38,443 nucleotides of DNA. Origin: an uncultured Nitrospiraceae bacterium. Its GTDB lineage: Bacteria; Nitrospirota; Thermodesulfovibrionia; Thermodesulfovibrionales; Dissulfurispiraceae. The stretch spans positions 1 to 38,443 of the forward strand of contig CAMTVO010000016.1 of NCBI GenBank assembly GCA_947085205.1. Direction: 5' to 3'. The notes under the pieces were generated by a model. That model worked only from the letters and a program-made list of their open reading frames with translations, did no database searches and was not told the origin of the DNA. Position numbers and translations under genes: made by a program. This document shows positions 101 to 17,463 of the stretch, piece after piece (the stretch's first letter is position 1; each line of letters starts with the position of its first letter).

Positions 101-1309
101 TGGTCTATCGCTCCGCCTTCTTCATACGCAGCGGATGTTTCTATTCACGGCTTCTTTCAGGGCAATTATTCTTTCAGCAGCCGCTCATCCAATCCGGACG
201 GCGGCGATTTAAAATGGGCAGAGGAAAGGTTTCAATTGAAACTTGATGCCACAAAAGAACCATTCAGATTATTCATAAAGACAGATGCCATCTATGATCA
301 TATCGATGAAGAGCCTGAATTAGAATTAAGGGAAGGTTATATAGATTGCACAGCTAAAAAATGGGATTTAAGGTTAGGCAGACAGGTGATCACATGGGGT
401 CTTGGGGATTTAATCTTCATAAACGACATTTCCCCAAAGGATTATGAGGCATTTTTTTCCGGAAGGCCGATGGAGTATTTGAAGAAGGGAATTGACGGAG
501 TAAAACTCGGGGCATATCCTGCCTTTGCCTCGTTTGAGTTTATTGCGATACCTATATTTGAGCCTAACAATTATCCTAATACAAAAAGATTTTACATGTT
601 TGACCCTATGCCGAATGTTACAAACAGGGAGGAAAAAGACCCCGCATCAAATTTCAAAAACACCGAACTCGCCTTGAGAATTTACAGGGACATAGCAGGC
701 TTTGATGCATCCGTATATTTCTACCGCGGCTTTTTCCGCAAGCCGTATTTAATACCTGATGACCTCAATAACACGACAAAGATTACCCTCCATTACCCAA
801 AACTCTCTGTTTATGGTGCAAGCCTTCAGGGAAGGGCATTGGATGGAGTCTTGAGCCTTGAGGCAGGCTATTATGATTCAAGGCAGGACAGGTCTGGAAA
901 AGATTACACAATACCAAATTCCCAGACAAAATTTCTTATTGGTTATCAAAGGCAACTGTGGGAAGACTTTACAATCGGGTTGCAATACTACAATGAATAC
1001 ATGCACGACTATTCAGAATATGTAAAGAATCAGCCGTCTGGGCTGCCAAAAGACAGAAAGCTGTATCAACTTGCAACCGTAAGATTGACGCAACTGCTCA
1101 TGCACCAGGCATTAAAGCTTTCCTTCTTTTCCTTCTACAGCACATCAGACGGAGACTATATGTTAAATCCAGAGGTTAAATACAAATTCACCGATAGTGT
1201 ATGGGGCGCGGTTGGAGCAAACATCTTCGGCGGCGGTGAAAAATGGAGCCAATTTGGACAACTGGATAAAAACGACAACGTTTATTTACAATTAAGGTAT
1301 GAGTTTTAG
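2..1309 (+). CDS. Outer-membrane beta-barrel protein (DUF1302-like); 5' end lies before the window
   Basis: The frame of ORF 236..1309 is open back to base 2 and contains a signal peptide (LLRYCSAVLLLCWSIAPPSSYA-AD). Motifs LREGYID, LGRQVITWG and a C-terminal YxF typical of beta-barrels. Confidence 0.8.
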   Translation, partial: AVEQQSNRPAVTLWNKIFFKKLLRYCSAVLLLCWSIAPPSSYAADVSIHGFFQGNYSFSSRSSNPDGGDLKWAEERFQLKLDATKEPFRLFIKTDAIYDHIDEEPELELREGYIDCTAKKWDLRLGRQVITWGLGDLIFINDISPKDYEAFFSGRPMEYLKKGIDGVKLGAYPAFASFEFIAIPIFEPNNYPNTKRFYMFDPMPNVTNREEKDPASNFKNTELALRIYRDIAGFDASVYFYRGFFRKPYLIPDDLNNTTKITLHYPKLSVYGASLQGRALDGVLSLEAGYYDSRQDRSGKDYTIPNSQTKFLIGYQRQLWEDFTIGLQYYNEYMHDYSEYVKNQPSGLPKDRKLYQLATVRLTQLLMHQALKLSFFSFYSTSDGDYMLNPEVKYKFTDSVWGAVGANIFGGGEKWSQFGQLDKNDNVYLQLRYEF

Positions 1310-2198
1310 ACGTGTTCTCATTTCTTTTCTGGTAGTCTTTGTTTCAATCCTTACTGTAAAACCAGCTGCATGTGACGAAAAAGTTAAGGAATCTAAAAAA
1401 GAAGTTGTCTATTTCAGCGCAATAACGCTTTATCATCCTATCGTAATGTACCAGAGATACCAGCCCCTTATGGACTATCTTACAAAAAATAATACACCAT
1501 ACAGGTTTGAATTAAAGTTAAGCCAAGATTATAGGGATATAATAAATTTTCTTAAAAACAATAGAGTTCAGGTTGCATTGCTTGGCGGTGTCACATATAC
1601 GATAGCAAAGAAGGAATTCGGTGTGATCCCTATCTTGAGGCCTATTGGTGAGGATGGCAGGCCTTTTTACAGAGGTGTGTTTGTCACAAGAGAGACGAAC
1701 AAGGAGATAAACACGCTGTCGGACCTTAAAGGTAAATCTGTTGCCTTTGCCTCAAAACTATCAACAGCGGGGAATCTCGCCCCCCTCTATCACCTTTATT
1801 TGAAAGGCAACTTAAGGCTTGAGGATTTTTCAGAGTATGTGAACTTGAAATATCACGATTCTGTTGCGAGAGAAGTTTTGAGGGGGAATTTTGATGCAGG
1901 AGCTGTTATAGATTCTGTTGCAAACAAGTTTAAAAATAGAGGGCTGAAGGTAATAGCTGTTTCTGACCCCATACCGGGGCTTCCGATAGTGGTGCGTGCA
2001 GACGTATCGCCCGAGATTGTAAATGCCATAAAAAAAGCGCTCCTCGCCTTAGACTACAATAATCCTGAACACCGGAAGATAATGGAACAATGGGATGAAG
2101 AATTTAGATATGGTTTTGCCGAGGCAAAGGATTCTGATTATGATTCCATTCGCAAAATGATTGATTATCTGGGCAAAAAGGGCGTGAAAATACCGTGA
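1299..2198 (+). CDS. PhnD/SsuA-like periplasmic oxyanion-binding protein, likely the accessory sensor of the two-component system
   Basis: Signal peptide; YQPLMDYL, DLKGKSVAF-S-STAG, YHDSV and DAGAV motifs; directly upstream of the kinase. Confidence 0.85.
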   Translation: MSFRRVLISFLVVFVSILTVKPAACDEKVKESKKEVVYFSAITLYHPIVMYQRYQPLMDYLTKNNTPYRFELKLSQDYRDIINFLKNNRVQVALLGGVTYTIAKKEFGVIPILRPIGEDGRPFYRGVFVTRETNKEINTLSDLKGKSVAFASKLSTAGNLAPLYHLYLKGNLRLEDFSEYVNLKYHDSVAREVLRGNFDAGAVIDSVANKFKNRGLKVIAVSDPIPGLPIVVRADVSPEIVNAIKKALLALDYNNPEHRKIMEQWDEEFRYGFAEAKDSDYDSIRKMIDYLGKKGVKIP

Positions 2199-2214
2199 TG
2201 TTCTTAAGGGACTT

Positions 2215-3696
2215 ATGATTAAGAGGCTCAAGAAATGGGTATTTAGTCTTCAGGGGAAGTTTATAATAGTTGCATCCCTCTGCATTTTAGTATTCACTAC
2301 CATTGGAAGTTTCATTATTATTTCACGGGAAGAAAACCTTTACAGAAAGGACATAATTAATCAGGGCAAGGTGCTTTCTGAAATAAGCAGAGTGATGCTC
2401 ACAAATGTCATGGTTTATAACGAATTAGGCATGATGAGCAATCAGGACTTGATTGACTATCTTGACTACTTTATTGTGAATCTCATGGAGCGCGATAAGA
2501 GAATCAGATATGCTGCAATTATTGACAACAGCGGGATGGTTATTGCACAGAGCGACCTCGGAGAATATGGGCAGAAGTGTAAAGATGAGCCGACCTTGAG
2601 GGCTATTGCTACACTCAAGACAAACATTACAGACGGCGATTTTTATGGCCAGCCTATTATAAATATTGCAACGCCGTTAAATATCAGCACGAAGAACTGG
2701 GGAGCGCTCCGCATCGGACTTTCAACAAAAGAGGTTAATCTGTCCATCGCTTCTCTTAAGAGAGAAATTGCCGCCCTCGTTGTCATATTTTCTGCCATGT
2801 CACTCATCATAATAAGCATTGGCGCACGCATTCTTTCAAGACCTGTAACAAGGCTTTCAAAAATCATGGACAATATCAAAACACACGGAGATATTGAGCC
2901 GCAAAATGTAGAACTAAGAGACAGAAGGGATGAAATCGGCGATCTCCAAAAGAGCTTTCTATGGATTCTCCAGAGGTTGAGAACGGCAGACAGGGAACAT
3001 AAAAATACCGTAGAGCTTCTTGCCCGGACAGAAAAGATGGTTTCAATTGGACGACTTGCATCAGGCGTTGCCCATGAAGTAAACAATCCATTAAGCGGCA
3101 TAACCCTCTGCTTTAAAAATCTCATGGAAGGCAATAAGGATAATCTAATGAGAGAAAAGCTGATACTTGCAATCAATGACGGACTTCAGAAGATTAAAAA
3201 TATCGTTGAGCAGCTTCTTGATTTCTCAAGGATGACCGTTACAGAAAAGACACCCGTTAATATCAATAACCTTATAAACAAGCTGCTCGTTCTGATTAAT
3301 TATCCTGCCTCAAAAAAGAACATAAAGATTGTTAGTGAGCTTTTTGAAGACATTCCAGAAATATCCATTGATGAAAACAAGATGTCGCAAGTGTTCATGA
3401 ATATAATGATAAATGCCATTCAGGCAATGGATGGAGGCGGCGCGCTTACAATCAGGACAGTAGTGGAAAATGGATTTTATGTGGTTTCCATCGAGGATAC
3501 AGGGGTCGGCATTTCGCCTGATATAATGCCCAGCATATTTGACCCTTTCTTTACGACAAAGGGAGTTGGAGAGGGGACAGGCCTGGGGCTCTCTGTGAGC
3601 AAGGGAATAGTGGAACAGCATGGCGGTATAATTGAGATTGAAAGTGAGGTTGGCAGGGGAACGACCTTCAGGGTTAAGATGCCATTTACGTTATGA
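2215..3696 (+). CDS. Membrane sensor histidine kinase (HAMP, HisKA, HATPase)
   Basis: Two TM helices; H-box GVAHEVNNPL; N-box NAIQA; DTGVG, FDPFFTTK and GTGLGL. Confidence 0.95.
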   Translation: MIKRLKKWVFSLQGKFIIVASLCILVFTTIGSFIIISREENLYRKDIINQGKVLSEISRVMLTNVMVYNELGMMSNQDLIDYLDYFIVNLMERDKRIRYAAIIDNSGMVIAQSDLGEYGQKCKDEPTLRAIATLKTNITDGDFYGQPIINIATPLNISTKNWGALRIGLSTKEVNLSIASLKREIAALVVIFSAMSLIIISIGARILSRPVTRLSKIMDNIKTHGDIEPQNVELRDRRDEIGDLQKSFLWILQRLRTADREHKNTVELLARTEKMVSIGRLASGVAHEVNNPLSGITLCFKNLMEGNKDNLMREKLILAINDGLQKIKNIVEQLLDFSRMTVTEKTPVNINNLINKLLVLINYPASKKNIKIVSELFEDIPEISIDENKMSQVFMNIMINAIQAMDGGGALTIRTVVENGFYVVSIEDTGVGISPDIMPSIFDPFFTTKGVGEGTGLGLSVSKGIVEQHGGIIEIESEVGRGTTFRVKMPFTL

Positions 3697-5072
3697 AGAT
3701 ACTCGTAATAGAAGACGAACTTTCTGTAAGACTCGGGATTGCCTGTACCCTGGAAGGTGCTGGATATAAGGTTAAGACTGCTGAAAACGGGATTGACGGC
3801 ATCAGCCTTTTTGAGAAAGAGAATTTTGATATTGTTATCACAGACCTGAAACTCCCCGGCGCTGACGGCATAGAGGTTTTAAAGGCAGTAAAAAATATCT
3901 CTCCTGATACAGGCGTAATCATTATCACTGCCTTTGCAGAAATTAAAACCGCTGTTGAGGCAATGAGGCAAGGCGCTTATGATTATCTCTCAAAACCTTT
4001 TGATCCCGCTGAGTTGCTTATCGTCATAGAGAGGTTCACAAAGCAGAGGGGACTTGAGCTTGAGAATATACGATTAAAAGAAAAGATAAGGGACAAAAAA
4101 CAGTTTGAGCAGCTTATCGGCGCAAGCCCTTCAATGCAGGCAATATTTCAAATGATTGAGGCAGTTGCAAAAACAGATTCATCAGTGATTATTTATGGAG
4201 AAAGCGGGACAGGAAAGGAGTTGGTTGCAAACGCCATCCATAATCTTTCACCGAGAAAAGAAAAAACCTTTATCAAGATAAACTGTGCCGCTATACCAGA
4301 GACCCTCCTTGAGACAGAATTATTCGGACATGAAAAGGGGGCATTTACAGGCGCTGTTCAGAGAAGAAAGGGCAAGTTTGAGATTGCAGACGGAGGAACA
4401 ATATTTTTTGATGAAGTAGGAGATATGGCCCTGCCGCTTCAGGCAAAGCTTTTGAGGGTTCTCGAAAATCATACATTTGAAAGGGTGGGCGGGAATGAAG
4501 CAATCACTGCAAATGTGAGAACCATTTATGCAACAAGAAAGAATCTGAAAGAGGAAGTAAAAGCAGATAGATTCAGGGAAGACCTTTACTACAGGATCAA
4601 TGTCTTACCTGTTACAATTCCACCTTTGAGAGATAGAAAAGAAGACATCCCCCTGCTTATTGAGCATTTCTTAAAATTTTTTAGCAATAAGACGGGAAAG
4701 AAGGATATGGCTATTACGCCTCTGGCAATAGAGAGGCTAATGAATTATGATTACCCTGGCAATGTAAGGGAGATTGAACATGCCATAGAAACGGCTGTAA
4801 TCCTGTGCAGAGGCAATGAGATAGACACCTGCTGCCTCCCTGCTGAGATAAGGGGCAATGAGATAAAAGAGGAGATAATGTCCATCCCTTGCGGCAGCCT
4901 TACCCTTGAAGAACGGTTAAAGGTATTCGAAAGGGACGCTGTTATGCAGACTCTGACTGCCACTGGCGGCAAAAAGAAAGAGGCTGCAGAAAAGTTAGGC
5001 ATCAGCAGGGAGACACTCTGGAGAAAGCTAAAGGAATATGGTTTTCCTGTAACCTCTGAATCAGAGGATTAA
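3693..5072 (+). CDS. Sigma54-dependent response regulator (NtrC family)
   Basis: Receiver domain (IEDE, TDLKLP), Walker A GESGTGKE, GAFTGA and a C-terminal Fis-type HTH; ATGA overlap with the kinase. Confidence 0.95.
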   Translation: MKILVIEDELSVRLGIACTLEGAGYKVKTAENGIDGISLFEKENFDIVITDLKLPGADGIEVLKAVKNISPDTGVIIITAFAEIKTAVEAMRQGAYDYLSKPFDPAELLIVIERFTKQRGLELENIRLKEKIRDKKQFEQLIGASPSMQAIFQMIEAVAKTDSSVIIYGESGTGKELVANAIHNLSPRKEKTFIKINCAAIPETLLETELFGHEKGAFTGAVQRRKGKFEIADGGTIFFDEVGDMALPLQAKLLRVLENHTFERVGGNEAITANVRTIYATRKNLKEEVKADRFREDLYYRINVLPVTIPPLRDRKEDIPLLIEHFLKFFSNKTGKKDMAITPLAIERLMNYDYPGNVREIEHAIETAVILCRGNEIDTCCLPAEIRGNEIKEEIMSIPCGSLTLEERLKVFERDAVMQTLTATGGKKKEAAEKLGISRETLWRKLKEYGFPVTSESED

Positions 5073-5091
5073 TCTCCCAATATCTTATTCT

Positions 5092-5140
5092 GTTAGCTTT
5101 TTGCAACTCCACTAAAGCTTTCAGGTTGCACATCTGCAAC
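5092..5140. promoter_or_regulatory. Paired upstream activator sites GTTGCA-N4-TGCAAC
   Basis: Perfect palindrome at 5125-5140 and an imperfect copy GTTAGC-N4-TGCAAC at 5092-5107; 33 bp apart and upstream of the sigma54 promoter. Confidence 0.65.
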
Positions 5141-5193
5141 TTAAAGCACACCTGAATTAGAAGTGTCCATTGATTTTTAAAGATTTTTCAGCT

Positions 5194-5209
5194 TGGCACT
5201 GCTTTTGCT
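5194..5209 (+). promoter_or_regulatory. Sigma54 (-24/-12) promoter
   Basis: TGGCAC-TGCTT-TTGCT matches TGGCAC-N5-TTGC and sits next to a sigma54 activator gene. Confidence 0.9.
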
Positions 5210-5323: not shown

Positions 5324-8300
5324 ATGGAGAAATTTTTTAATCCAAATATCAGCAGAAGGGCATTTTTGCAGTGGTCAACTGCCATAACGGCAACGCTTAC
5401 GATACCGGGACTTGCATCTGCATCTCCAAAGAGCATTGCTACTGCACTGGAGGAAAGATGGGTGCCTTCAATATGCACCCAATGTAACGGAAGATGTGCA
5501 TTGGCTGTGAGAATTGTCGGCGGCATAGCAGTAAAAATTGAGGGATTGAATGGTCAGAGGCCAGGAATAGCAGGCAATGTTTTGCCGCGTGATCCAATAA
5601 CCAACGGCAAGCTATGCGCAAAGGGCGCCGCAGGGCTTGAGCAGCTTTACAATCCTGACAGGATTAAATATCCGATGGTAAGGGTAGGAGAAAGAGGCTC
5701 CGGCAAATGGAAACGCATAAGCTGGACAGAGGCATATAACAAGATAATTGCAGGGGATAATAATGAAGGGATTGGATGGAAGGGGCTGAGAGATCATCAC
5801 GGCAAGTGGAATACACTTGCAGGCATGTACACAAAGAATGGAGATGCAGACGGAGCTAACCCATCCGATGACCTCAAAAGGTTTCCTGAAACCATGATAA
5901 ACGCCTGGGGCAGACATCAGGCTGACTGGTATCAGGATAGATGGCTTAACTCTTATGGTCATTACCCTTACAGATATCAAAGGTGAGGACTCTGTTACAG
6001 CGGCTTCTTGCAAGCCGCAAGGGTAACTGTCAGTGGTGCTGGAGGCTTCCCGATAACGACTCCTGACGCTGATTATATGAGTAAAGGAGATGTGATTATC
6101 CTTTCAGGGGTGAATGCAATGGTGGCTTCCTATCCGGCAAATCCATTGGCACAGCGCCTCGTTGCTGCTCAGGAAAGGGGCGTAAAACTTGTTGCCGTTG
6201 ACCCTCGCATGTCAGAGACGGCAATAGTCTGCCGCGGAGACAAAGAAAACAATGTCCCGGGCTGGATTGGAATTAAACCCGGAAGCGGCGGCTTAACTGC
6301 ACTGGGAATGCTTAAAGCATTAGCAGAAGGGTCTGTTCCGGGCGTTACTTATGACGAGCTTTCACCGTCAAGAAAAGGCGGACCCGACAGAGGCTATGGA
6401 TTTAACCCTCAAGGATTTGGGAACGAAGAGGCAGCAGATACTCTTTTTGTATCCACCCTTTCAGGTGACCATAAAGCAGGCACAACAACTCTGACTGTAT
6501 CCATTACAGGGAAAGGTGCCTCAACAATAGATAAGGTAAAGAGACTTGTTGGCGCTCAGGCCGGTCTTAACTTTGGCGTTAAAGGCAAGCAGGAGATTGT
6601 GGATGCAATAGCAGTTAAGACAGAAGGCGATAAGGCTGTAATAACAATTGCACAGCCTGCGATGTATTCCCATTCAAGCGGCTCGGTCATCACAGAAGAC
6701 CTTAACCTGAAAGATTACGTGAGAGGGCTTGATTGGAGCCTTATATCCAAAGAAACAGGCACTTCCAGAGAGATTATTACTAACATGGCAAAGATGTTCT
6801 TTGGCGCTGCAAAGGCAGGCAAAAAGGCTGTCTGGGAGTCAAAGCGCGGGGATGCCATGCTCTCCAACGGCCTACAGGCAATAAGGTCTGGGTTATTGCT
6901 CAATGCCTTTGTCCCTGCCAACTTCGATAAAAGGACATTTGGTGTTGAAGGAGGCTGGGCACATTACCATTCAGGCTCACTAAAGGCCCGCCCAAGCATG
7001 GCGAGGCACAGCTTTGAAGGTGGTGATTATTACTACTTCAGACTCTGGTTATTGGAAGATGCGCCTGCAGGCACAAAGACGTTCAAGGTTGGCGCCGGGC
7101 AAGCTAAAAAAATGGCAAAGCTCTTAAAGAGACCTGCTGAATTTTATAGAAAGATTGCATTGAGGAGTTCACCGAGCATAGCAGAGCTTACAGCAGACCA
7201 GAAACTTCCGACCGATGCGCTGATTACCGGGGCAATACTTGCAAAGGCAGGAAGTGTTATTAAGGCAGGCTCTGATATCTTGAAGGACTCTGTTGTCAAG
7301 GATGCAGCCACATGTCCTGCGATTGGCGGAGAGTGGTCAGACGGCTTATTGAAGGCAAAGATGACACTCACTGCTGATGCAACATTAATGAAAGATGTTG
7401 TCCTTGCTGATGGAAGCCTTATTAAAGAAGGCTCTGTGCTTAAAACAGGCTCACATGTATGGGATGCAGGCAATAGGGAGATAATCGGCGGCGCATATAA
7501 ACATGGAGACGGCGGCACAGTAGAGAGCGCTGTGCCGGTTAGTGTTGATGTAAGCGCAGGGACAGTTACATTGGATTTTGAAGGAGGCAAAGGTTCCCGT
7601 TACTTCCATAAGGCAACTACAACAATTAAGTGGGAACTTCCATATCTCATGCACGGACTCCTTCATCACGCATACCCGGTGGCAGAAGAACAGCAGACCC
7701 ACCATGTAATTGCAAATATCGGCAAGGTATTTCCATATGGTGTTTTGATGCAAAAGTATTGCAACTGGGCGCTCTCTTTTCCCGACAACATTGATGTAGT
7801 TAAGGCGCTTAAAGACACAAAGCGAATTCCCTATCACATTGCCGAAGATGTATTTCTCGGGGATGTGAGCGCCTATGCTGATATTCTGCTTCCTGCAGAG
7901 ACATATCTTGAACGATGGGAATATGTCCCGGCATTCTGGATGAGCTATGTGAGAAAGACCAATCTCCGCCAACCTATACTGTTTGACATATCCCATGCGC
8001 GTGCAGGAAAGTTTGTCAACGGCGTGCTCTTTGAGGCAAAGGACTTACGGGATATGTATTATGACATAATCAACATGATAAACTGGGACGGAAGCTATAC
8101 CGGCCCTATACTGAGAGATGGAAAACCTGCAGGTGTAAATGATGGCTGGGCATTTGGGACAAGAACCTATAAATTTGATGACAAAGGCAACATCACGGGC
8201 TGGGATGATTTAGGCAAGGTAGGCCCGCCTGACAGCAATGGCGTAAGGTATGGCCCAAAGGAAAAAGGAGGCAACGGCACAGCAGACCCTTATGGAGCGC

Positions 8301-9631
8301 TTTTCTGGCATAAAAGCAGGTTAAGGGTAATGGGGGCAAGACCTGCTGATGCGCTTTCCGGAGATAGAGGTGCTGCCGACAGCACGCTTTTTCCGCTTGA
8401 TCCGGATATAGGACAAATTATGATGGAGGCAAGCAGGGTATCCTTTGCTGATGCTACAACTGATGAAAAGAGGCTTGAATACATGATGAGCAACGGGGTC
8501 ATTTATAAGACGGACACCGACAAGCTTGCATCAGACCTGACACTTGCGAGTGCTGTAACCACTACAGGAGGCATAGATGCCCTGGATAAATCCAAGCTTG
8601 CAGCAGGCACTATCCTAAAAGCAGGAACTCTCGTTCCCAATCCAGTTGACCAAAAGGCAATAGGAGGAGGTTATTCTGCTAATAGGTTGACCGGAGATAT
8701 TACAGTTCCATCGGATGTAACGATTGCAGGAAGTATTCTCATTGCGCCGGAAAGCATGCTCAAAGAAAAGACCATGCTCAAAGGCGGTTCTTCTGCATGG
8801 AGCGCAAAAGACCGTGCATCTCTGGGAGGTAGGTATGCTCCTGTGAACAAGTTCTCCCTCGGACCTGTGGGTCTGGATGGAAAAATGGGAAAATATAAAG
8901 AAAATCTTGATATTCCTGGCGTTCCCGGAAACAGGACAAAGTCAAAGGCAAATCTCAAGGTTCAGGCATTTGCAGTTACATTGGCAGGTGTTCCAAACCC
9001 TGGACAAAGGAAAATTGAAGATCTTTCAGCAGAGAGAGGCAATACCTGCTATCATGGTCTTCCTGAATGGGAACCTCTTGATGTATCACTTGCCCGACCA
9101 GAAGATGACCTTAGTCTCATTACATTTAAGGCGTCAGTTTATACAAAGACAAGATTGGCTTCCCAGCCGTCCCTTAAAGAGATTATGTGGGAGAATGAGA
9201 TTGTGATTAACCCTGATGATGCGAATAAACGAGGCATAAAGACAGGCGACAAGGTAGTCGTTGAGGCAAGGCAGAGGACGCCAGGCACAACAGAATATCG
9301 CATTGAAAAGGTTGAAGGCCCTGCCAGGGTGACAAAAGGCATCAGACCCGGTGTGGTTGGTATTTGCGGCATGTTCGGACATAAATACGCAGGTAAATTC
9401 AGTGTTGATGGTAAAGCTAACAGACTGGATTCAAAGGCTGCTGCTTGGCCTGTTCAGAAACTTCCTGATGATCTTGACCCCGGCTATAAAGGTGAATATG
9501 TATGGAGCAGATACGACGGACATCAGAACACAGGCATCAACACAAACAAGGTAATCTGGAGCCTTACCGAGCCCATAGGCGGCGGGGCACAGTATCATGG
9601 AACAAAAATTCGTGTCTATAAAAAGGCATAA
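5324..9631 (+). CDS. Tat-exported Mo/W-bisPGD oxidoreductase catalytic subunit (Psr/Phs/Arr/Ttr-like branch); probable selenoprotein of 1435 aa with Sec221
   Basis: RBS AGGAGG; Tat motif SRRAFLQ; CxxCxxxC...C Fe-S motif. ORFs 5324..5986 and 6008..9631 share one frame and are separated only by TGA 5984-5986 (YQR-U-GLCYSG). Also VDPRMSET, YADILLPAETYLERW and a C-terminal molybdopterin-binding domain. Confidence 0.85.
6000..6018 (+). promoter_or_regulatory. Candidate bacterial SECIS element
   Basis: GCGGCTT-CTTGC-AAGCCGC, a perfect 7-bp stem 13 nt after the in-frame TGA; possible lower stem ACTCT/AGGGT. Confidence 0.7.
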
Positions 9632-9646
9632 AGGAGGTGGTAAACA

Positions 9647-10435
9647 ATGACACAATATGTATATGCATATGATTCAAATAGATGTGTTCGCTGCCACGCC
9701 TGCGAGACAGCCTGTAAGATGGAAAATCAGGTTCATGTGGGGCATGGAGCAGGAGCCGCCGAGGGAGGTTATGGCTGGGGCGGACCTGGAGAAAAAGGAC
9801 CAAGATACCGCAGGGTGCGAACATTCGGAGATGGGCCCGGGACATATTTTCTTTCTATGTCCTGCAACCACTGCAGCGACCCTGTGTGCTGGAAGACATG
9901 TCCGCTCAAGGGCAAAGACCTTTTTGATCCAAAGGGTGCGATTTACAAGGAAAAAACAGTTGGCGCTGTCATAATCCAGAACGGAAAATCTGGCACGCCG
10001 AAAATCTGCGATCCTGAAAAAGCAAAGTGCGACAGAATATGTCAGAAGGCATGTCCATATGAGGCTCCTCAGTGGAACCCTGTCACAAAGGTGATGGAGA
10101 AATGCCACCTCTGTGTCCTCACAAGACTCAAAAGACCTGACCCTGATGGAGTTAAAAGACCAGCGTGTGTTGATATCTGCATGGGCAGGGCGCTTCAGAT
10201 AACAGATGAGAGGACAAAACCATACAAACTCGTCAGAAGCAATAAGGGAAGATACAAAGGAAAGACAGCAGATACTGAGGATGGAGGCGCAACAGCCTTT
10301 GTTGAAACAAAGGAAGGGATACCGCCTGATGAGCAGCATCCAGGTGACTTCACTACCGATTTAACAAAGGTCGGCGTTGCACCGCCGGACATCACAAAAC
10401 CGAATACTATCGTGAGACCGAAGGCGATGTGGTAA
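9647..10435 (+). CDS. 4Fe-4S electron-transfer subunit (DmsB/NrfC/PsrB-like)
   Basis: CxxCxxCxxxC, CNHCxxPxCxxxCP, a variant third motif, and KCxxC...PACxxxC; RBS AGGAGG. Confidence 0.9.
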   Translation: MTQYVYAYDSNRCVRCHACETACKMENQVHVGHGAGAAEGGYGWGGPGEKGPRYRRVRTFGDGPGTYFLSMSCNHCSDPVCWKTCPLKGKDLFDPKGAIYKEKTVGAVIIQNGKSGTPKICDPEKAKCDRICQKACPYEAPQWNPVTKVMEKCHLCVLTRLKRPDPDGVKRPACVDICMGRALQITDERTKPYKLVRSNKGRYKGKTADTEDGGATAFVETKEGIPPDEQHPGDFTTDLTKVGVAPPDITKPNTIVRPKAMW

Positions 10436-10493: not shown

Positions 10494-11195
10494 TTGAAGA
10501 CAGATTTTAAGACAGACTGGGAACTTGGAGCAAGGGTTTTTGGTTATAGTTTTCTTTTTAGAGGCTTTTTGGAAGAGCCGACAAAGGATTTTCTTGAGAA
10601 ATTAAAAAATGAGGCTTTTCTGTCTTACTTCCCTTACATAAATGAGAACGATGATATTAAAAATGGTGTTAGATTTGTGGAGTCATACATTAATGAGAGC
10701 TCCTCAATTGAAAAACTTACTGATGAATTAGCAGGCGACTATGCAGGGCTTTTTTTAGGCCCTGGCAAGGTGATAGCTCCTCCGTGGGAATCAGTATATG
10801 TTTCCGGAGGCGGACTCATTTTCCGTGAAGAGACCTTTGAGGTGAGGAAAAGATATGCAAAGCACGGGCTTTTACCTGAAAAGTTAAATAAGGAGCCTGA
10901 TGACCATGTAGGGCTTGAACTGCAATTTATGTATCTGCTTTCTTCAAAAACCATCGATGCCATAGATTCAGGAGACTACAAAAAGGCAAGGGAACTGTTT
11001 CATGATCAGAAAGAATTTCTGGAAGAACATCTGCTTAAATGGTCGCCAAGATTTTCAGACGATATATATCACAATGCAGAGACATCGTTCTATCGTGGAA
11101 TAGCAAGGATACTCAAGGGCTTTGTGACTGAAGATCATGGAAAATTAAATGAATTAAGCGGAATTTTTAATTTTGATACCGTAGACGTTTCATGA
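10494..11195 (+). CDS. TorD/DmsD family maturation chaperone
   Basis: YAGLFLGP, PPWESVY, EPDDHVGLELQFM and HLLKW; TTG start with AGGAGG. Confidence 0.92.
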   Translation: MKTDFKTDWELGARVFGYSFLFRGFLEEPTKDFLEKLKNEAFLSYFPYINENDDIKNGVRFVESYINESSSIEKLTDELAGDYAGLFLGPGKVIAPPWESVYVSGGGLIFREETFEVRKRYAKHGLLPEKLNKEPDDHVGLELQFMYLLSSKTIDAIDSGDYKKARELFHDQKEFLEEHLLKWSPRFSDDIYHNAETSFYRGIARILKGFVTEDHGKLNELSGIFNFDTVDVS

Positions 11196-11239
11196 AATTG
11201 AAGAACTTGAAAGAAACAATGAAATAAATGGAGGTTTTG

Positions 11240-12859
11240 ATGAAAAGGGCGATGATTGTTTTTCTTGTTTTATCGCTGATTTCTCCGTCTTCAGTATTTG
11301 CAATGGAGAAAGACGAGATTCTCAAAAAACTTGAAAATGTTCTTAAAAAGAACGAGGAGCTTTTCAAGGAAGTGGAGCAATTAAAAAGGCAGATGCAGGA
11401 TATAAAGTCAAAAGAGGATACTCAGGACAAAAAAATCTCTGCACAGGAAAAGAAAGTAAAGGATGTGGAAAAGCTTGCGAAAAAGGCAGAAGGCATCTCA
11501 AGGTTTGAGGTTTGGGGAGAATACAGGTTTAAAGCAGACTCTATCCATGCTAATTTTGACCGATTTACCGGATTCAGATGGAATCCGAATGTAACAATGG
11601 GCGGCGCAGCGATAGGCGCTTTCCAGCCTAAACAGTATGAGGAATTCACTGCAAGTGACAATAGCCTCCTGACAAACCGTTTAAGGCTTAAGTTTAAAGT
11701 AAAGGCAACAGATGATGTTGACTTTACAGGACGGCTTGCTATGTATAAGATATGGGGACATCAGACAGCAGCGCCGCTTGAGGGTAACTACGGCGGAAAC
11801 TATGGCTTTATGCCGCAGAATTCAATGCTTTTTGACGGCAACACATCGTATAAGCCTTCAGACAGCGCATTAAAGGTTGACAGGGCATTTGTAAACTGGT
11901 ATGAGCCTGGAGGATTCCCCGGTATAATATCAGTTGGAAGAAGACCTTCCGCAGGCGGTCCGCCTTTACATCTCAAGCAGGGTATTGAGCGGGATGCCAC
12001 GCCTGCAGGCCTCGGTGTTGATTATGCCATGGATGGGCTGGCAATTATATACACGCCTGATATTTCTTCGCTCCCCGGTTTTAAGGCACGCGCATGTTAC
12101 GGCAAGGGATTTGAATCAGGACTCAGAGACAGCAATGTAAACACACTTAAAGATGCAACATTTGCAGGTTTTAATTTTGATATATACGAGAACAGAGAAA
12201 CAGGAACACTTGCGCAGATTAACTTATACAGGGCCTTTAATCTCAATGACCTTCCTGAAAAGGCAACTGCAAATATCGGTGATGTTAACCATGCAACAGC
12301 GCTCTTTATGACAAAGACAGCAGGGCTTGACTGGTTTGCATCAGCAGGGTTGTCAAAAACATATCCAAAGAATGTCTCCGGCTGGAGACCTCGTGTAGAT
12401 ATGAATAGCGACGGCGATGTTGATGATGCTGGAGATGTTACCATGTCTCCCGGCGGGCTCCTTTATGACGAAGGCGGCAATAAAAAGGGACGTTCAGGTT
12501 ATGCTGTTCATGTTGGGACAAGGATTCCTTATGGAAAGAGCAAGTTCGGGCTTGAATATAACTATGGCTCAAAATACTGGGTGAACTTTACCCCTGCGTC
12601 TGACGATATTTACGGCAGCAAACTTGCAACCAAAGGACATGTTGGCGAACTTTACTGGCTCTATGACCTAACCAAAAAACCTGTGTGGAAGCTCAGCAAG
12701 GTGCTCTTCAGGTTGGGCTATCAGCATTATATATTTAATTACAGCGGAAGCGGATTGCTTTTGGGAGAGCCCAAGAAATTGAGCGGTAACCCGTCGCTTC
12801 TGTATCCGTCTCCGAGGACAATGGACAATGTATATGCATCATTTGATGTTCATTTCTAA
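11240..12859 (+). CDS. DUF3373-type outer-membrane porin with N-terminal coiled coil
   Basis: Signal peptide, coiled coil, RLAMYKIWG, SVGRRPS, EYNYGSKYW and a terminal F; start chosen from GGAGG spacing. Confidence 0.75.
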   Translation: MKRAMIVFLVLSLISPSSVFAMEKDEILKKLENVLKKNEELFKEVEQLKRQMQDIKSKEDTQDKKISAQEKKVKDVEKLAKKAEGISRFEVWGEYRFKADSIHANFDRFTGFRWNPNVTMGGAAIGAFQPKQYEEFTASDNSLLTNRLRLKFKVKATDDVDFTGRLAMYKIWGHQTAAPLEGNYGGNYGFMPQNSMLFDGNTSYKPSDSALKVDRAFVNWYEPGGFPGIISVGRRPSAGGPPLHLKQGIERDATPAGLGVDYAMDGLAIIYTPDISSLPGFKARACYGKGFESGLRDSNVNTLKDATFAGFNFDIYENRETGTLAQINLYRAFNLNDLPEKATANIGDVNHATALFMTKTAGLDWFASAGLSKTYPKNVSGWRPRVDMNSDGDVDDAGDVTMSPGGLLYDEGGNKKGRSGYAVHVGTRIPYGKSKFGLEYNYGSKYWVNFTPASDDIYGSKLATKGHVGELYWLYDLTKKPVWKLSKVLFRLGYQHYIFNYSGSGLLLGEPKKLSGNPSLLYPSPRTMDNVYASFDVHF

Positions 12860-12874
12860 AATCATGAGAAAGAG

Positions 12875-13294
12875 GTGAATGAAGTGATATTTGGTTTAGA
12901 GATTAAAAAAGATAACCCTAACATAGTAGTAGAGCAACATGGCAATAGGTCATCAGCGCCACAGCGCTACTGCTCTGCTGCGCTACTGCTCTTCTTTATT
13001 TTCTTTCCTGCGGCTGCCTTTTCATTTGATGTAGAGATAGTGGCAGATCCCTCTTCAGGTGAGGCGCCACTGGAAGTAGAATTCTCAGCAGTAGTTAAGG
13101 CTGGGACCGCAAAAAGTTTCCAATGGGAATTTGGAGATGGTGGAAAGTGCAAAGAGCAAAATTGTAATCATACCTTCAACAGAGGAGGTACATACACAGT
13201 TAAGCTTACTGTTGTGAGTGATGCTGGCGTCACGGTTACCAAAACCATGTCCTTTGAGGTTCAGAGAAGGAAGGGCGGTTGACCGACTGCTTAA
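12875..13294 (+). CDS. Secreted PKD (Ig-like) domain protein; ends at 13282 unless the TGA is read as Sec (…RKGG-U-PTA, stop at 13294)
   Basis: Hydrophobic signal ending AAFS; PKD motifs GEAPLEVEF, WEFGDG and GTYTVKLTV; TGA 13280-13282 followed by a SECIS-like hairpin. The start codon is uncertain. Confidence 0.7.
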
Positions 13295-13312
13295 TCGCAT
13301 CTGGAGATGCGA
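13295..13312 (+). promoter_or_regulatory. Candidate SECIS element of the PKD gene
   Basis: TCGCATC-TGGA-GATGCGA starts 12 nt after the TGA; G is second in the loop; no U-tract follows. Confidence 0.55.
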
Positions 13313-13464
13313 AAAACTGAGTATAAAATAACCGATAAGATGATGAACGACACGATTTAAGCAAAATTATTAGAGGATGAAAAGGCAAAGAAAAGCATTG
13401 ATGACATCTTATGCCTTCGTGAAGGGCATAAGGAATGAGTAACAAACAGAGAAAGGAGGAAGGA

Positions 13465-15861
13465 ATGAGTAACAGTAATCTATCAAGAAGAGATTTTCTG
13501 AAGTATGCAGGTGCAGGTGCAGTTATAGCTGGAATGCCATCAATACTTTATGGCGAAACAAAAGAAAAGGCCCCGAAGCCTTACACAGAAGACGGCATAG
13601 CCCCTGTGCCTGACAAAGTTGTTACAGCAGGCTGTCCGTGGTGTCAGACAGGCTGCAGTATGAAGGTTCATGTAAAGGATGGCAGGATTGTGAATATTTA
13701 TGGCAATCCTGATGACCCTGTGACAGGCGGAAAGCTCTGTCCCAAGGGGCAGGCAAGTATAGGTTTGCTTTATAACAAATACCGCCTGAAGTCGCCATTA
13801 AAACGAATTGGACCAAGGGGCAAGCCAGAATCCTATCAGGAGATAAGCTGGGAACAGGCATTAACAGAGATTGCTGAGAAGTTGAAAATGGTGAAGGAGA
13901 AATACGGACCTGAAGCCTTTGCATGGTGGACTGCCGGTAGGAGCGAATCACAGGCAAGGGCAGGACTTACAGGTACATTTGAAAAACTTTATGGCACACC
14001 GCATCGTGAGGGCACAGGGCCCTTCTGTAACCTTGCAGGAACATCTGCTTCCAACTCTATCTTAGGACACAATAATCCACCATGGATATATACGAGGGAA
14101 GACTTCGGCAACGCAGACTGGTATATGTTTGTCGGCAGCAATTCGGCAGCCTGTAAGACCGTGGCTTTCGGTATGGTAAATGACGAGAGGGTAAAGAGAA
14201 AGATAAGACTCATTGTCGTTGACCCGAGGATGACAGAGACTGCGAGCAGGGCTGATTTGTGGCTTCCCATTAAACCGTCCACAGATATGGCATTGGCGCT
14301 CTCAATGATGTATCACATTATTGAGAAAGACCTGCACAACAAGGAATTCATTGATAAAAAGGTGCTTGGTTTTGACAGGCTCAAGGCATTTCTCTTTGAA
14401 AAAAAATACACGCCTGAATGGGCAGAGAAGGTGACAGGCATTCCGGCAAAGACAATCAAGGGTATTGCTGAAGAATACGCAAAGACAGAGAAGGCGATTA
14501 TCATGGGCAATGCCGGATTGAGTCACCATACAAACGGTCATCTGACCCACAGAGCGTTCTTTATGCTCGCGGCAATAACAGGGCATTTCGGCAAGCCCTC
14601 GATGGGCTATGGATGCGGCAATACAGGGGCTACACCAATGGGAAGCATCTCAGTGCCCCCTGAAAAAGAAGTAAAACCTAAAAAACAGAGGCTCGGGAGG
14701 TCGCCTGCTGCATGGGTTGAGCCGATGATTACAGGAAAGCCTTATCCCATAAAAGCATTCATGTCAACATGCAATCCCCTCGTACAGTGGGGAGACATTG
14801 AAAGGGTAATGACAGCACTGGATAACCTTGATGTCTCGGTATATTACAATATGTTCCCGAGCATTGAGACGCTCTATTTTGACTACATCCTTCCTATCTC
14901 TCCATGGGCTGAATCAGGAGGTGTGGCGCCGGTATCGGATGAGAGGAGGAATGTCTTTGTCCCGCAGATTATTCAACCGTTGCATCAGGCAAAGCCTGAG
15001 AGGTGGATATTTATTGAACTTGGACAGAAGATGGGCTGGGGTGATATTTTTAAGGACGAATACAAAGACCCTGTGGTTTTACAGAGGGCGATGGCAAAAA
15101 AGACAGGCTTTTCGCCTGAACGGTTCTTTGCCAAAAAAGATTACGCCTTAAGAGGCCCCCTCCCCTCTCCTGACGCCCCTGAAATCGGCACACTCTATAC
15201 CGAGGCACACGGAGTGCCGGGCAAAAAGGGACAGTTCCCGAGACCTTCGGGCAAGATAGAGATATGGACGGAAGATTTGGAAAAGGCATATAAGGCTCAA
15301 GGTATAAGTCCTCTGCCTGAATTTTATGTTGACCCGGAGATAGGCATGAAGGATGGGCTTCCCTACCTTGAATATCTTGATGACGATTCATCAGAAGGGG
15401 TCACATCTCAGATGAAAGGGATCGTGGCTGTCGGCAATATGAGGGCGCTCCGCGTAAAGATCAAATACCCCGAGAAACCTGAAATATCAGGCTTTAACAT
15501 GTATCTTACCTCTGGCAGACCCTCTGCATCGCATTTTGGCGACGGCTCACACTGGATATGGAGTCTTAATGAGCAGATGCCTGACCAGTACTGCATGATT
15601 CATCCTGAAAAGGCTAAAGAGACAGGGGTTAAAGACGGCGATATGGTCAAAGTAGAAGGACTGAAAGGCTCTGTTACAGCAAAGGCATGGGTTTACGAAG
15701 GTATAAGGAAGGATACGGTTTTTGTACCGAACACATATTCAGAAAAACAGCCCTTTACCCAGTGGAGGTCATTAAACTTTATTGTTGATAAAAACAAACG
15801 GTGCCCTGTATCAGACCAGATAAACTATAAAGGGCTGATATGCAGGGTCACAAAGGCATAA
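13465..15861 (+). CDS. Second Tat-exported Mo/W-bisPGD oxidoreductase catalytic subunit (Cys ligand)
   Basis: RBS AGGAGG; SRRDFLK; CPWCQTGC...LCPKG; YGTPHREGTGPFC; VDPRMTET; YPIKA; C-terminal domain IV. Confidence 0.92.
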   Translation: MSNSNLSRRDFLKYAGAGAVIAGMPSILYGETKEKAPKPYTEDGIAPVPDKVVTAGCPWCQTGCSMKVHVKDGRIVNIYGNPDDPVTGGKLCPKGQASIGLLYNKYRLKSPLKRIGPRGKPESYQEISWEQALTEIAEKLKMVKEKYGPEAFAWWTAGRSESQARAGLTGTFEKLYGTPHREGTGPFCNLAGTSASNSILGHNNPPWIYTREDFGNADWYMFVGSNSAACKTVAFGMVNDERVKRKIRLIVVDPRMTETASRADLWLPIKPSTDMALALSMMYHIIEKDLHNKEFIDKKVLGFDRLKAFLFEKKYTPEWAEKVTGIPAKTIKGIAEEYAKTEKAIIMGNAGLSHHTNGHLTHRAFFMLAAITGHFGKPSMGYGCGNTGATPMGSISVPPEKEVKPKKQRLGRSPAAWVEPMITGKPYPIKAFMSTCNPLVQWGDIERVMTALDNLDVSVYYNMFPSIETLYFDYILPISPWAESGGVAPVSDERRNVFVPQIIQPLHQAKPERWIFIELGQKMGWGDIFKDEYKDPVVLQRAMAKKTGFSPERFFAKKDYALRGPLPSPDAPEIGTLYTEAHGVPGKKGQFPRPSGKIEIWTEDLEKAYKAQGISPLPEFYVDPEIGMKDGLPYLEYLDDDSSEGVTSQMKGIVAVGNMRALRVKIKYPEKPEISGFNMYLTSGRPSASHFGDGSHWIWSLNEQMPDQYCMIHPEKAKETGVKDGDMVKVEGLKGSVTAKAWVYEGIRKDTVFVPNTYSEKQPFTQWRSLNFIVDKNKRCPVSDQINYKGLICRVTKA

Positions 15862-15879: not shown

Positions 15880-16413
15880 ATGAGTCAGTATTCAATAATG
15901 GTTGATACAGAGAGGTGCATTGGCTGCAAGTCATGTGAAACTGCCTGCAAGCTGGAAAACGGCATACCAGCAGGCAGATACAGGATAAAGAACCTTTGGA
16001 TAAACCCTCAGGGAGGCAAAAGGCTTGATTTTATGACCATGCCTTGCATGCACTGCGAAAAGCCTGCATGTGCTGCTTCATGTCCTGTAAAGGCTATTTC
16101 AAAGCGAAAAGAGGACGGTATTGTTTTGATAGACAAGAAAAAGTGTAATGGGTGCCAGTACTGTGTCCATGCCTGTCCTTACGGAGCTATTAACTTTGAT
16201 GCAGAAAAAAAGGTTGCGGACAAATGCACATATTGTCTGCACAGGCTTCAGAGAGGCGAGGAGCCTGCCTGCGTGTCCAAATGTTCTGGACATGCGTTAA
16301 GCCTTGGCAAAAAAGATGACCTCATTGCAAAGGCGAAATCTGGCGGTCGGAAAACAAGGGACATCAATAAATTCGGTATAAACCCATCAACATTTTATTT
16401 AGAGAGGGTATGA
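15880..16413 (+). CDS. 4Fe-4S electron-transfer subunit (DmsB/NrfC-like)
   Basis: Four canonical Cys clusters (CIGCKSCETAC, CMHCEKPACAASCP, CNGCQYCVHACP, KCTYC..PACVSKC). Confidence 0.93.
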   Translation: MSQYSIMVDTERCIGCKSCETACKLENGIPAGRYRIKNLWINPQGGKRLDFMTMPCMHCEKPACAASCPVKAISKRKEDGIVLIDKKKCNGCQYCVHACPYGAINFDAEKKVADKCTYCLHRLQRGEEPACVSKCSGHALSLGKKDDLIAKAKSGGRKTRDINKFGINPSTFYLERV

Positions 16414-16862
16414 CCATGAAAAAGCGCAAAGTTCAAGGTTCAAAGTTAAAAGTTAAAAGTTTTTTCAAAAAACTGTTCACTGTTCACTGTTCACTGTTCA
16501 CTGTTTTCTTCCTGTTCACTGTCGTTGATGCGGATGCCTCGGAAAAGGCAAAGAAATATCCTAACTGGTATGAGATGCACATTAAGCAGGGCATAATTAA
16601 AGAAGATGGAAGCGGCGCTGCACAGGGTGTTGCAGGGGATGCAATTATGCGTGCAATACAGGCTCGGCGTGTGGATGGCTTGAATCCGCAGGTCTGTGTT
16701 GGCTGCCACAGCAAAGGCGGTCCAGGGACATGGCTCTATGGAAATCCCAAATATATGCAGGTGAAATGGACGCCTGCTAAAAAGTATAAAAAGACAGCAG
16801 CCGATAGAGTTGAGGTGAAAAGGCCGTATATAAGTGGTATAAAGGTTAGTGAAGACCAATAG
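16410..16862 (+). CDS. Small exported protein with one CxxCH (putative monoheme cytochrome c)
   Basis: Signal peptide ending ADA; CVGCH; translationally coupled on both sides. Confidence 0.6.
   Translation: MTMKKRKVQGSKLKVKSFFKKLFTVHCSLFTVFFLFTVVDADASEKAKKYPNWYEMHIKQGIIKEDGSGAAQGVAGDAIMRAIQARRVDGLNPQVCVGCHSKGGPGTWLYGNPKYMQVKWTPAKKYKKTAADRVEVKRPYISGIKVSEDQ
16427..16506. repeat. Heptamer tandem repeats (MAARGTT)x5 and (ACTGTTC)x5
   Basis: Read directly at 16427-16461 and 16472-16506. Confidence 0.85.
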
Positions 16863-17463
16863 CAAAATACTGCCTGCTGATATATTTGCCCAGTTGAGCG
16901 AATTTTTCAAGGAGCCTACAGAGGAATTTGCAGAGGATGTGTCCTCTGGGAGGCTCCTTGAGTTCTTTCAGACAGTCTTTGAAAGTTTCGGAATAGATGA
17001 CACACCGGTTTTAGATGGCGTAAAGGTCGAAGGGGATGTTTTCACTGTTCTCAAGGAAGAGTATAAAAGGCTTTTTGTTGGTCCCTTGCCCCTCTATATT
17101 GTACCTGTTGAGAGCGTTTATAAAGTCTGGACTTCAGACCCTGAATGTAAGCTGCCCATTGCAGCAGAAAAAGGCTATCTGATGGGGGACCCTGCGATAG
17201 ATATGATAAAGAGGTATCAAGAACAGGGAATTGTAATACCTGATAAATATTCCTCTATGCCTGACCACATTGCCCTTGAGCTGGAATATATGGCATTTTT
17301 GCTAACCAACGGTGATGAGGAAAATCAGAAAGAGTTCATGGCTTCTCATCTTGACTGGCTGGATGAACTTGCAGAGGATATCAAGAATTTTAAAATGGGC
17401 AGCAGCTTTTATTCCGCAGGTGCAGAAGTAACTGCTCTCATCGTTTCTCAATGTATTAAATAA
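16849..17463 (+). CDS. Second TorD/DmsD family chaperone
   Basis: EYKRLFVGP, PVESVY, PDHIALELEYM and HLDW. Confidence 0.9.
   Translation: MKTNSKILPADIFAQLSEFFKEPTEEFAEDVSSGRLLEFFQTVFESFGIDDTPVLDGVKVEGDVFTVLKEEYKRLFVGPLPLYIVPVESVYKVWTSDPECKLPIAAEKGYLMGDPAIDMIKRYQEQGIVIPDKYSSMPDHIALELEYMAFLLTNGDEENQKEFMASHLDWLDELAEDIKNFKMGSSFYSAGAEVTALIVSQCIK

Follow-up and report, generated by a model that had tools for sequence, protein, structure and literature searches.

What might an operon gain from a selenocysteine (Sec) placed next to, and not at, the metal ligand of a molybdenum (Mo) enzyme? The question is raised by a 38,443-nucleotide contig of an uncultured Nitrospiraceae bacterium (GenBank assembly GCA_947085205.1, contig CAMTVO010000016.1), which we analysed as a whole and refer to as the window; it is the entire contig C16 of genome G000 (1.89 Mb, 89.7% complete). 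The operon in question encodes a giant Mo enzyme with an in-frame TGA (MoA), a porin-like protein, a small secreted PKD-domain protein with a second TGA in its tail, and a second Mo enzyme (MoB). A preliminary description of the window had read these genes, together with a PhnD-like sensor, a kinase, a sigma54 activator, iron-sulfur (Fe-S) subunits and chaperones, as a chalcogen-respiration system based on selenoproteins. The listed genes are real, and each was confirmed at the place and on the strand that had been given for it (Table 1). Contigs of run X1, built with another assembler, matched positions 5867-10107 and 12413-15839 with 0 differences, including both TGA codons and the junction between the PKD gene and MoB; since run X1 is probably the source sample, this agreement excludes assembly error only.

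The two in-frame TGA codons

With its TGA read through, MoA keeps its twin-arginine translocation (Tat) motif, a CxxCxxxC...C cluster motif and the core motifs of enzymes with Mo-bis-pyranopterin guanine dinucleotide (Mo-bisPGD) through to the C-terminus. In three alignments, Cys224 fell in the column that holds the Sec of FdhA and the Cys of TtrA, ArrA-like and PhsA proteins. Sec221 as the Mo ligand was rejected by alignment and by its spacing from a conserved Gly. The aligned ligand is Cys224, giving a predicted U-x-x-C(Mo) motif in which Sec221 stands off-ligand at position -3, a point that the preliminary description had missed. MoA reads R-U-G-L-C where its relatives mostly read H-[TS]-x-x-C. 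Among 101 aligned rows with Cys in the ligand column (MoA's own best matches and chosen references, not a random sample), position -3 was Thr in 44, Gly in 12, Ser in 10 and Cys or Sec in 7. We take this residue to line the substrate pocket, from the ArrA structure (Ser190, Cys193).

Both TGA codons very likely encode Sec, as had been proposed. The MoA TGA recurs in metagenome contig L042, whose protein is 79% identical, and was present in 2/2 loci covering the site. Products deposited in databases break at this codon: P0010 is 220 aa long and ends at residue 220, and P0003-P0006 begin past it. Of the 14 further cluster members shown, 13 were MoA; nine of these begin eight residues after the TGA, one begins later and three are short internal pieces. 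In the PKD protein, the tail RRKGG-x-PTA was invariant in 4/4 sequences, with PKD domains 56-96% identical, and x was TGA in the window and in genome G250 and Cys in L042 and P0007; the P0008 product stops at GG. The Sec of this protein, which had been described as possibly terminal, is followed by P-T-A-stop, so the residue stands and its terminal position does not. A third enzyme, MoX, found in related genomes and described below, has TGA in nine of its copies and Cys in four.

The alternative is that the TGA codons are true stops, in which case MoA would be split or dead as a gene and GG would be the end of the PKD protein. It would fit the failure to find a Cys orthologue of MoA itself, the atypical loop of the MoA hairpin, which is without the usual leading G, and the standing of Sec as a prediction from sequence. 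We consider it scarcely credible. In L042, the sequence flanking the codon on either side keeps an open MoA frame and is about 79% conserved, database products break exactly at the codon, TGA is exchanged for Cys in PKD and MoX orthologues, and the Sec machinery is complete: selA, selB, selC and selD, which the preliminary description had suggested looking for, are all present in the host (SelA, 633.6 bits, cut-off 267.9; SelB, 384.6 bits, cut-off 242.25; tRNA-Sec and SelD, also above their cut-offs), and the SelD gene itself holds a TGA. The selenocysteine insertion sequence (SECIS)-like hairpins behind both codons rank in the top 2-4% of 374 TGA-ended open reading frames (ORFs), with spacing like that of the host fdhA and rhodanese hairpins. 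Codons over the MoA hairpin were identical to L042 in 12 of 14 cases, versus 55% overall (p about 0.016). Among the MoX copies with Cys, the hairpin was lost in 2/3 that were folded.

Other selenoprotein-related features were seen along the way. The host has a second match above the tRNA-Sec cut-off (G000:C52:4307-4425, L002; 55.2 bits, 119 nt), which ARAGORN did not call. Its other probable selenoproteins are a KGCUYG protein of about 1,150 aa (C14, minus strand), a DsbC-like UxxC protein (C2, plus strand, near 30,500), a rhodanese adjoining a Psr-like gene (C46, near 2,960) and FdhA (C22, 10102-11373). The TGA-containing Mo gene on G380:C39 is an ordinary FdhG-type enzyme with Sec as ligand.

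MoA, MoX and the GG-U PKD protein are thus three candidate selenoprotein families that seem not to have been listed. In its available text, a 2026 review of 119 selenoprotein families gives FdhA and FwdB as the sole Mo-bisPGD subunits and does not contain the term "PKD" (PMC13188914); off-ligand Sec and Sec-tailed PKD proteins are missing from that inventory. A second study reports no homologue with Sec away from the ligand position in the part available, its queries having been formate-type enzymes (PMC7331816). In the sources covered, Sec in Mo- or W-bisPGD enzymes is always a metal ligand and is confined to formate-type enzymes. Our literature search, which covered few subscription papers and no supplements, returned nothing on Sec with UxxC in molybdopterin oxidoreductases, on PKD selenoproteins or on this operon; the supplements of PMC10100899, PMC12998232 and PMC13188914 could hold MoA, MoX or PKD sequences. 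Because gene callers cut proteins at TGA, selenoproteins of all three kinds are hidden. The presence, in two lineages, of Sec next to a Mo with a Cys ligand points towards reactions that such enzymes are not known to perform.

Table 1. Features assigned in the window
Feature	Position	Strand	Remarks
DUF1302-like outer-membrane protein	2..1309	+	PF06980, E 2e-7; truncated by contig start
PhnD-like periplasmic oxyanion-binding sensor protein	1299..2198	+	PF12974, E 6e-64
Cache/HAMP sensor histidine kinase	2215..3696	+	62-73% identical to kinases preceding MoX operons
sigma54-dependent response regulator (activator)	3693..5072	+	67-74% identical to regulators preceding MoX operons
Conserved palindromic elements and sigma54 -24/-12 site	5076..5209 (site 5194-5209)	+	
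MoA, 1,435-aa Tat Mo-bisPGD enzyme (TGA read through)	5324..9631	+	three large inserts
Predicted U221-G-L-C224 motif	5984..5995	+	TGA (5984-5986) three residues ahead of aligned Mo-ligand Cys
SECIS-like hairpin 3' of MoA TGA	5994..6027	+	-13.9 kcal/mol; 8/374 TGA-ended ORFs equally stable
Fe-S electron-transfer subunit of MoA	9647..10435	+	PF13247
TorD/DmsD-type chaperone	10494..11195	+	PF02613
DUF3373 outer-membrane porin-like protein	11228..12859	+	PF11853, E 2e-98
Secreted single-PKD protein, predicted tail RRKGG-U-PTA	12875..13294	+	TGA 13280-13282
SECIS-like hairpin 3' of PKD TGA	13288..13321	+	-11.6 kcal/mol; 16/374 TGA-ended ORFs equally stable
MoB, 808-aa Tat Cys-ligand Mo enzyme, slot-2 cassette	13435..15861	+	outside Psr/Arr/Ttr clades
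Fe-S subunit of MoB	15880..16413	+	
Small protein with one CxxCH, possible monohaem cytochrome c	16410..16862	+	no homologue in other loci
TorD-type chaperone of MoB	16849..17463	+	
ttrA remnant	17480..18499	+	residues 361-558 and 663-806 of L042 protein, 80-86% identical

A two-slot operon in related genomes

We counted relatives among 251 genomes of the class, 401 of the phylum and 68 of the family; the genomes that carry them are kin, so the locus counts are not independent. MoA is rare. It occurred in 2/401 phylum genomes, in L042 and in a few metagenome clusters, and its N-terminus was found in 1/68 family genomes. Pattern scans of the genome contigs returned no MoA relative, and those of metagenomes returned none at first and then one. 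In L042 and in G250, which belongs to the same family as G000 and whose MoA fragment bears the source name Thermodesulfovibrionales, the gene order was MoA, Fe-S subunit, TorD, DUF3373 porin, tailed PKD, a second, tail-less PKD, TtrB and TtrA. Slot 2 of the operon, which MoB fills in the window, was thus occupied by TtrBA in 2/2 other MoA loci.

Neighbourhoods of MoB elsewhere led to MoX, a TtrA-like enzyme of about 990 aa with the motif H-U/C-S-R-C, present in 13/251 class genomes (L057, at G178:C12:11528-14521, and 12 others, L058-L069). MoX is without the MoA inserts, yet it occupies the same slot. In all ten MoX operons assembled far enough, it was followed by an alginate-export-like porin and a FecR-PKD protein with CxC at its C-terminus; in the remaining three genomes, the FecR-PKD gene is on another contig. 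Behind the FecR-PKD gene came MoB in six operons, TtrBA in two and no second enzyme in two. MoB was found in 7/251 class genomes, always alongside MoA or MoX. In one operon, that of G512:C47 (L139:7400-12166), five genes lie between FecR-PKD and MoB, and genes for a cytochrome, an Fe-S protein, NrfD and NorC/NorB-like proteins were recognized there by eye. Among the best 120 of 241 FecR-PKD clusters (L039:1002-1937, P0178-P0297), 118 end in CxC, and their source names span Nitrospirota, Deltaproteobacteria, Rokubacteria/Methylomirabilota and Alphaproteobacteria; gene neighbourhoods were seen within the class of the host.

The two slot-1 enzymes did not share an origin within the tree, which we inferred under LG+G4 from 48 rows picked by hand out of a 74-row alignment (50 of 148 other matches plus references), with inserts and motif columns removed. 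A single origin of MoA and MoX was rejected (approximately unbiased test, p 6e-75). MoX lay on a separate branch inside a 22-row Ttr-like core (support 100/100). MoA branched outside this core, its stem long and its sister group formed by three unnamed proteins (96/91). The neighbour of MoB was a Nostoc plasmid protein (34%), and the pair fell outside the Psr, Arr and Ttr clades. The references were NCBI-annotated plasmid PhsA and TtrA and ArrA-like genes, the latter scoring 1,139-1,164 bits, below the ArrA cut-off of 1,600; PsrA, SrrA, SrdA, ArxA and MolyA were outside the set.

The same control region precedes both versions. Sensor orthologues occurred in 15/251 class genomes, namely G000, 12 of the 13 MoX genomes, G470 and G380; the 13th MoX genome has a piece of the sensor at a contig edge. 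The sensor lies 5' of MoX on the same contig in 9/13 MoX genomes. G250 gave no sensor match, and its contig ends within MoA. G470 and G380 have the sensor with no slot-1 enzyme detected; G470 has two copies of the porin and FecR-PKD pair, and no such copy was found in G380. The sigma54 promoter of the preliminary description was recovered as an exact site at 5194-5209. Alone, such a site is not above chance (2 matches at one mismatch or fewer versus 1.58 expected), but its position is kept in related operons, and the window, L042 and six MoX loci can be aligned over the promoter region. Scans for sigma70 promoters and terminators gave chance-level results only. The DUF1302-like gene at 2-1309 and the ttrA remnant lie outside the interval that had been described; both are part of the same story, and copies 67-71% identical to the DUF1302-like gene precede the sensor in four MoX loci.

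The second slot appears to turn over. Similarity between the window and L042 ends just past the PKD hairpin, at a cassette junction behind which come the MoB set and then the ttrA remnant, and the host has no other close TtrA, no second PKD and no MoX. The break, the remnant and the lack of another close TtrA indicate that MoB replaced TtrBA in the window. In G439 (G439:C37:13865-16897, L132), the slot-2 ttrA of one of the two TtrBA operons is broken by one TAG; together with the window remnant, this suggests frequent turnover. Within the MoB set, the cytochrome of the preliminary description holds as a gene with one CxxCH, and its identity as a cytochrome rests on that motif and an Atlas lead below 0.9. 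A TTCACTG-type short repeat (16462-16520) in the 5' part of its ORF matches many unrelated contigs, so the start of the ORF is uncertain.

Taken together, the exact gene set of the window was seen once, and what recurs is the two-slot layout, built from non-orthologous parts. The synteny anticipated by the preliminary description therefore stands for a porin, a thiol- or selenol-tailed PKD protein and two Mo enzymes under the same sensor and fails for the exact set: in both other MoA loci, a second PKD and TtrBA come next, elsewhere MoB follows MoX, and a conserved MoA plus MoB unit was rejected. With one sensor and promoter, two unrelated porins, two PKD tails and two U/C-x-x-C enzymes, we read the family as one in which parts have been swapped and the chemistry probably kept.

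Several further loci were noted. A second DUF3373 porin (G000:C39:18494-19834), 38% identical to the L042 protein, shares its contig with a Psr-like operon. Another PhnD-like binding protein lies directly 5' of a Tat-less PhsA-like enzyme (G000:C28:23817-27395, named by eye). The minus strand of the window carries, at 27737-32759, genes for a LolA-like protein, a porin-like protein and an MMPL/RND protein fused to a cNMP-binding domain. In several related loci, RND and LolA-like genes similar to these are found ahead of the DUF1302 gene. G470 (C169 and C158; L116, L120, L122) has three pairs of arsenite-oxidase/iodate-reductase-like Mo and Rieske genes, judged by eye.

Possible substrates and mechanism

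Our favoured reading, which we hold tentatively, is that of a signal-induced module for carrier-assisted periplasmic reduction of inorganic sulfur species with S-S bonds. The DUF3373 porin would admit tetrathionate, thiosulfate and poly(thio)sulfides, and the Sec or Cys tail of the PKD protein would capture the sulfur species covalently. The tail would hand the sulfur to the -3 Sec or Cys of MoA, the bound sulfur would be reduced at Mo, and the swappable second Mo enzyme would handle the product. With no membrane anchor in the window operon, either an anchor encoded at another locus would supply the electrons or the two enzymes would pass them between each other, as in disproportionation. We infer the substrate, the direction, the tail-to-enzyme hand-over and the electron path.

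Sulfur species of this kind are our best guess because of the Ttr partner, the host background and the neighbouring genes: dsrA and aprA are present in G000, pointing to a Dsr/Apr pathway, and several loci have YeeE/YedE, rhodanese, TauE and DsrH-like genes as neighbours. The reading also draws on the two separately evolved U/C-x-x-C enzymes, each with a porin and a thiol- or selenol-tailed PKD protein under one regulator, and on the tail being the most conserved part of the PKD protein. In the available text of two studies, Ttr-type enzymes increase during thiosulfate disproportionation in Desulfolithobacter (PMC9751629), and a porin beside ttrBCA is co-regulated with it in Dissulfuribacter (PMC13490349). 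The word "respiration" in the preliminary description is not supported as written, because the operon encodes no quinone-linked membrane subunit: between 5324 and 17463 we found no multi-pass membrane protein and at most one signal-peptide-like hydrophobic stretch per protein. Several MoX operons, unlike that of the window, encode a TtrC/NrfD-type anchor.

Several points weigh against the sulfur reading. The roles given to the parts of the module are predictions from sequence. No search that we ran detected homology between the PKD protein and SoxY, BLAST found no similarity between the sensor and TtrS, the host already encodes 3-4 Psr/Phs-like enzymes elsewhere, slot 2 is empty in two of the ten assembled MoX operons, and G241 has a close TtrBA but not the module. 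The TtrA lineage, as far as the available text of PMC10100899 goes, also contains selenate and arsenate reductases. A second selD adjoins the operon in G250 and G428, a Ttr-like enzyme (L048) sits in an ars cluster, and a repeat in the MoA inserts recurs in a large multihaem/Ig protein, which hints at a role on the cell surface instead.

The selD genes suit a selenium-oxyanion module, in which the sensor would detect selenite or selenate, the enzymes would reduce it and the tail would hold reduced Se for disposal or for SelD. The placement of SrdA in the TtrA lineage and of SrrA in the PsrA lineage (PMC10100899, available text) is compatible with such a role, and the sensor matches a putative selenate-binding family at 94 bits. 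That score is far under the cut-off of 250, however, a second selD is equally explained by demand for Sec, none adjoins the operon in the window, and Cys serves 4/13 MoX enzymes. We judge this reading unlikely.

Arsenic had been allowed as a substrate by the preliminary description, next to sulfur and selenium. In such a module for arsenic or antimony respiration or oxidation, the tails would capture As(III) or Sb(III) by thiol; vicinal thiols bind As(III), L048 lies among ars genes, and a binding protein, a kinase and a sigma54 activator ahead of a Mo enzyme form the aioXSR/arrXSR layout (PMC5908839, available text). The sensor makes arsenic less likely than had been allowed. It reads LLGG where ArrX has AFIC, and the position of Cys106, a binding-pocket feature of the AioX, ArxX and ArrX sensors in the same source, is Gly in the window and in 14/15 sensor orthologue loci for which the motif was read. 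Both enzymes branch apart from ArrA, and no ars genes were seen in the window. G000 has no ArrA-like gene; 11/68 family genomes have one, and three of these carry the module as well, with the ArrA-like gene separate from it. The chance that the module serves arsenic or antimony seems to us slim.

The MoA inserts (at about residues 343-460, 561-769 and 921-1240) bear on the surface role. Two of them share a repeat of about 95 aa (32% identity, pairwise E 1e-11), which also occurs in a 2,310-aa LamG/Ig/paired-CXXCH protein (P0019, residues 1470-1563) and has no Pfam match; the comparison covered MoA against itself and one relative. In a thiol shuttle, the U/C-x-x-C enzyme would act as a reductase of disulfides or selenosulfides and so recharge the PKD tail, which would attack insoluble S, Se or minerals at the porin or the surface. 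U/C-x-x-C and CxC are typical redox pairs, and Mo enzyme, Fe-S subunit and TorD with no anchor resemble the MOLY layout (PMC12998232, available text). Yet the Tat signal of MoA is without a lipoprotein Cys, MoX fills the same slot with no inserts, and the motif's second Cys, aligned as the Mo ligand, should be unavailable for disulfide formation. A shuttle of this kind strikes us as improbable.

The tails might instead bind metal, for cofactor supply or detoxification, or be structural, the PKD proteins being accessories of the porin and not carriers. CxC-COOH tails can bind soft metals, a gene for a molybdopterin-binding domain and MerR/ArsR regulators occur near some loci, and the FecR domain makes contact with an outer-membrane protein plausible. 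A single Sec/Cys tail, as in the MoA module, would be a poor chelator, Sec usually marks a redox or nucleophilic residue, and U/C-x-x-C in the enzymes would be left unexplained; we attach a low probability to this explanation.

Beyond the sulfur reading, we regard as possible but doubtful a new design within the dimethyl sulfoxide (DMSO)-reductase superfamily, evolved twice, in which a second-sphere -3 Sec or Cys, as nucleophile, accepts chalcogen atoms from a dedicated Ig-fold swinging-arm carrier docked at the porin. If true, it would be an anaerobic counterpart of SoxYZ, that is, carrier-bound periplasmic sulfur reduction or disproportionation in Nitrospirota and, via FecR-PKD, in several phyla. 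The question bears on sulfur uptake and activation outside the cytoplasm in anaerobes that disproportionate or reduce sulfur. The module offers a sensor with a measurable ligand and an easily expressed carrier candidate of 90 residues, and its natural all-Cys versions (G214, G448, G146, G428) can be made without Sec machinery, a practical route to the biochemistry.

Relation to known systems

As the preliminary description had anticipated, both window enzymes fell outside the characterised clades of our tree (built without PsrA, SrrA and ArxA), and neither passed a family cut-off. Against the NCBIfam TtrA model (PRK14991, cut-off 1,750 bits), MoA scored 87.5, MoB 70.6, MoX 345.6 and the TtrA-like enzyme of slot 2 566.4. 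The PhsA family (cut-off 694) was rejected with 162.5 for MoA and 300.6 for MoB, and the ArrA family (cut-off 1,600) with 50.7 and 129.7; both enzymes lay outside the PhsA and ArrA-like clades. According to the available text of PMC10100899, the Psr, Ttr and Arr lineages have a Cys ligand, and some lineages without a name are placed as sister to Ttr and at the base of these clades; MoA and MoB may belong to them.

The Ttr system is similar in that MoA too is a Tat-exported, Cys-ligated Mo-bisPGD enzyme with an Fe-S subunit, its N-terminal 350 residues align best to Ttr-like proteins of about 1,000 aa, and TtrBA fills slot 2 in relatives. MoA differs in having Sec for Thr/Ser at -3, Arg for His at -4 and about 600 extra residues, and the window operon is without TtrC. 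FdhA and FwdB are likewise Mo- or W-bisPGD enzymes, encoded with a single in-frame TGA close to the active site. Their Sec is the metal ligand, however, whereas that of MoA is predicted to stand three residues earlier in an enzyme of another clade, and membership in their type was rejected by alignment.

SoxY and SoxZ have an Ig-like fold, and in Wolinella, Sud works with Psr as a sulfur carrier. The PKD protein resembles SoxYZ, without homology, as a small secreted protein with a C-terminal Gly-Gly-Cys/Sec arm near periplasmic sulfur enzymes, and relatives have a second, tail-less PKD gene behind the tailed one. SoxY membership was rejected: the protein belongs to the PKD family and has no PF13501 match, of which G000 as a whole gave 0. 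Its tails are Sec or CxC, and its partners in the window and relatives are a porin and Mo-bisPGD enzymes, not SoxAX, SoxB and SoxCD. The Cys of the SoxY GGCGG motif binds sulfur (PMC6067878, available text); by analogy, the Gly-Gly-Cys tail may carry sulfur in the same way.

The DUF3373 protein is homologous to the solved Omp50 (PDB 10aw, E 1e-11). DUF1573 has an Ig-like fold, and its UGC-motif selenoprotein is, like the PKD protein, a small predicted selenoprotein with a non-thioredoxin domain. It differs in Pfam family and motif, and the table of PMC13188914, as available, gives it no link to a Mo enzyme. With aioXSR, arxXSR and arrXSR the module has in common a PhnD-fold binding protein, a kinase and a sigma54 activator 5' of a Mo enzyme. 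The window sensor has no equivalent of Cys106, by which membership among the AioX, ArxX and ArrX sensors was rejected, and neither Mo enzyme is of the Aio, Arx or Arr type. The MOLY cluster, whose proposed substrate is elemental sulfur, was compared by layout from the available text of PMC12998232: it too combines a Mo subunit, an Fe-S subunit and TorD with no membrane anchor in Desulfobacterota and Nitrospirota. No Sec, porin, PKD protein or regulator is described for MOLY there, and molyA is reported in all Thermodesulfovibrionaceae studied, in contrast to MoA with its two phylum genomes. As judged from these comparisons, the module resembles a Ttr/Psr system joined to a SoxY-like carrier, yet it fails membership in each.

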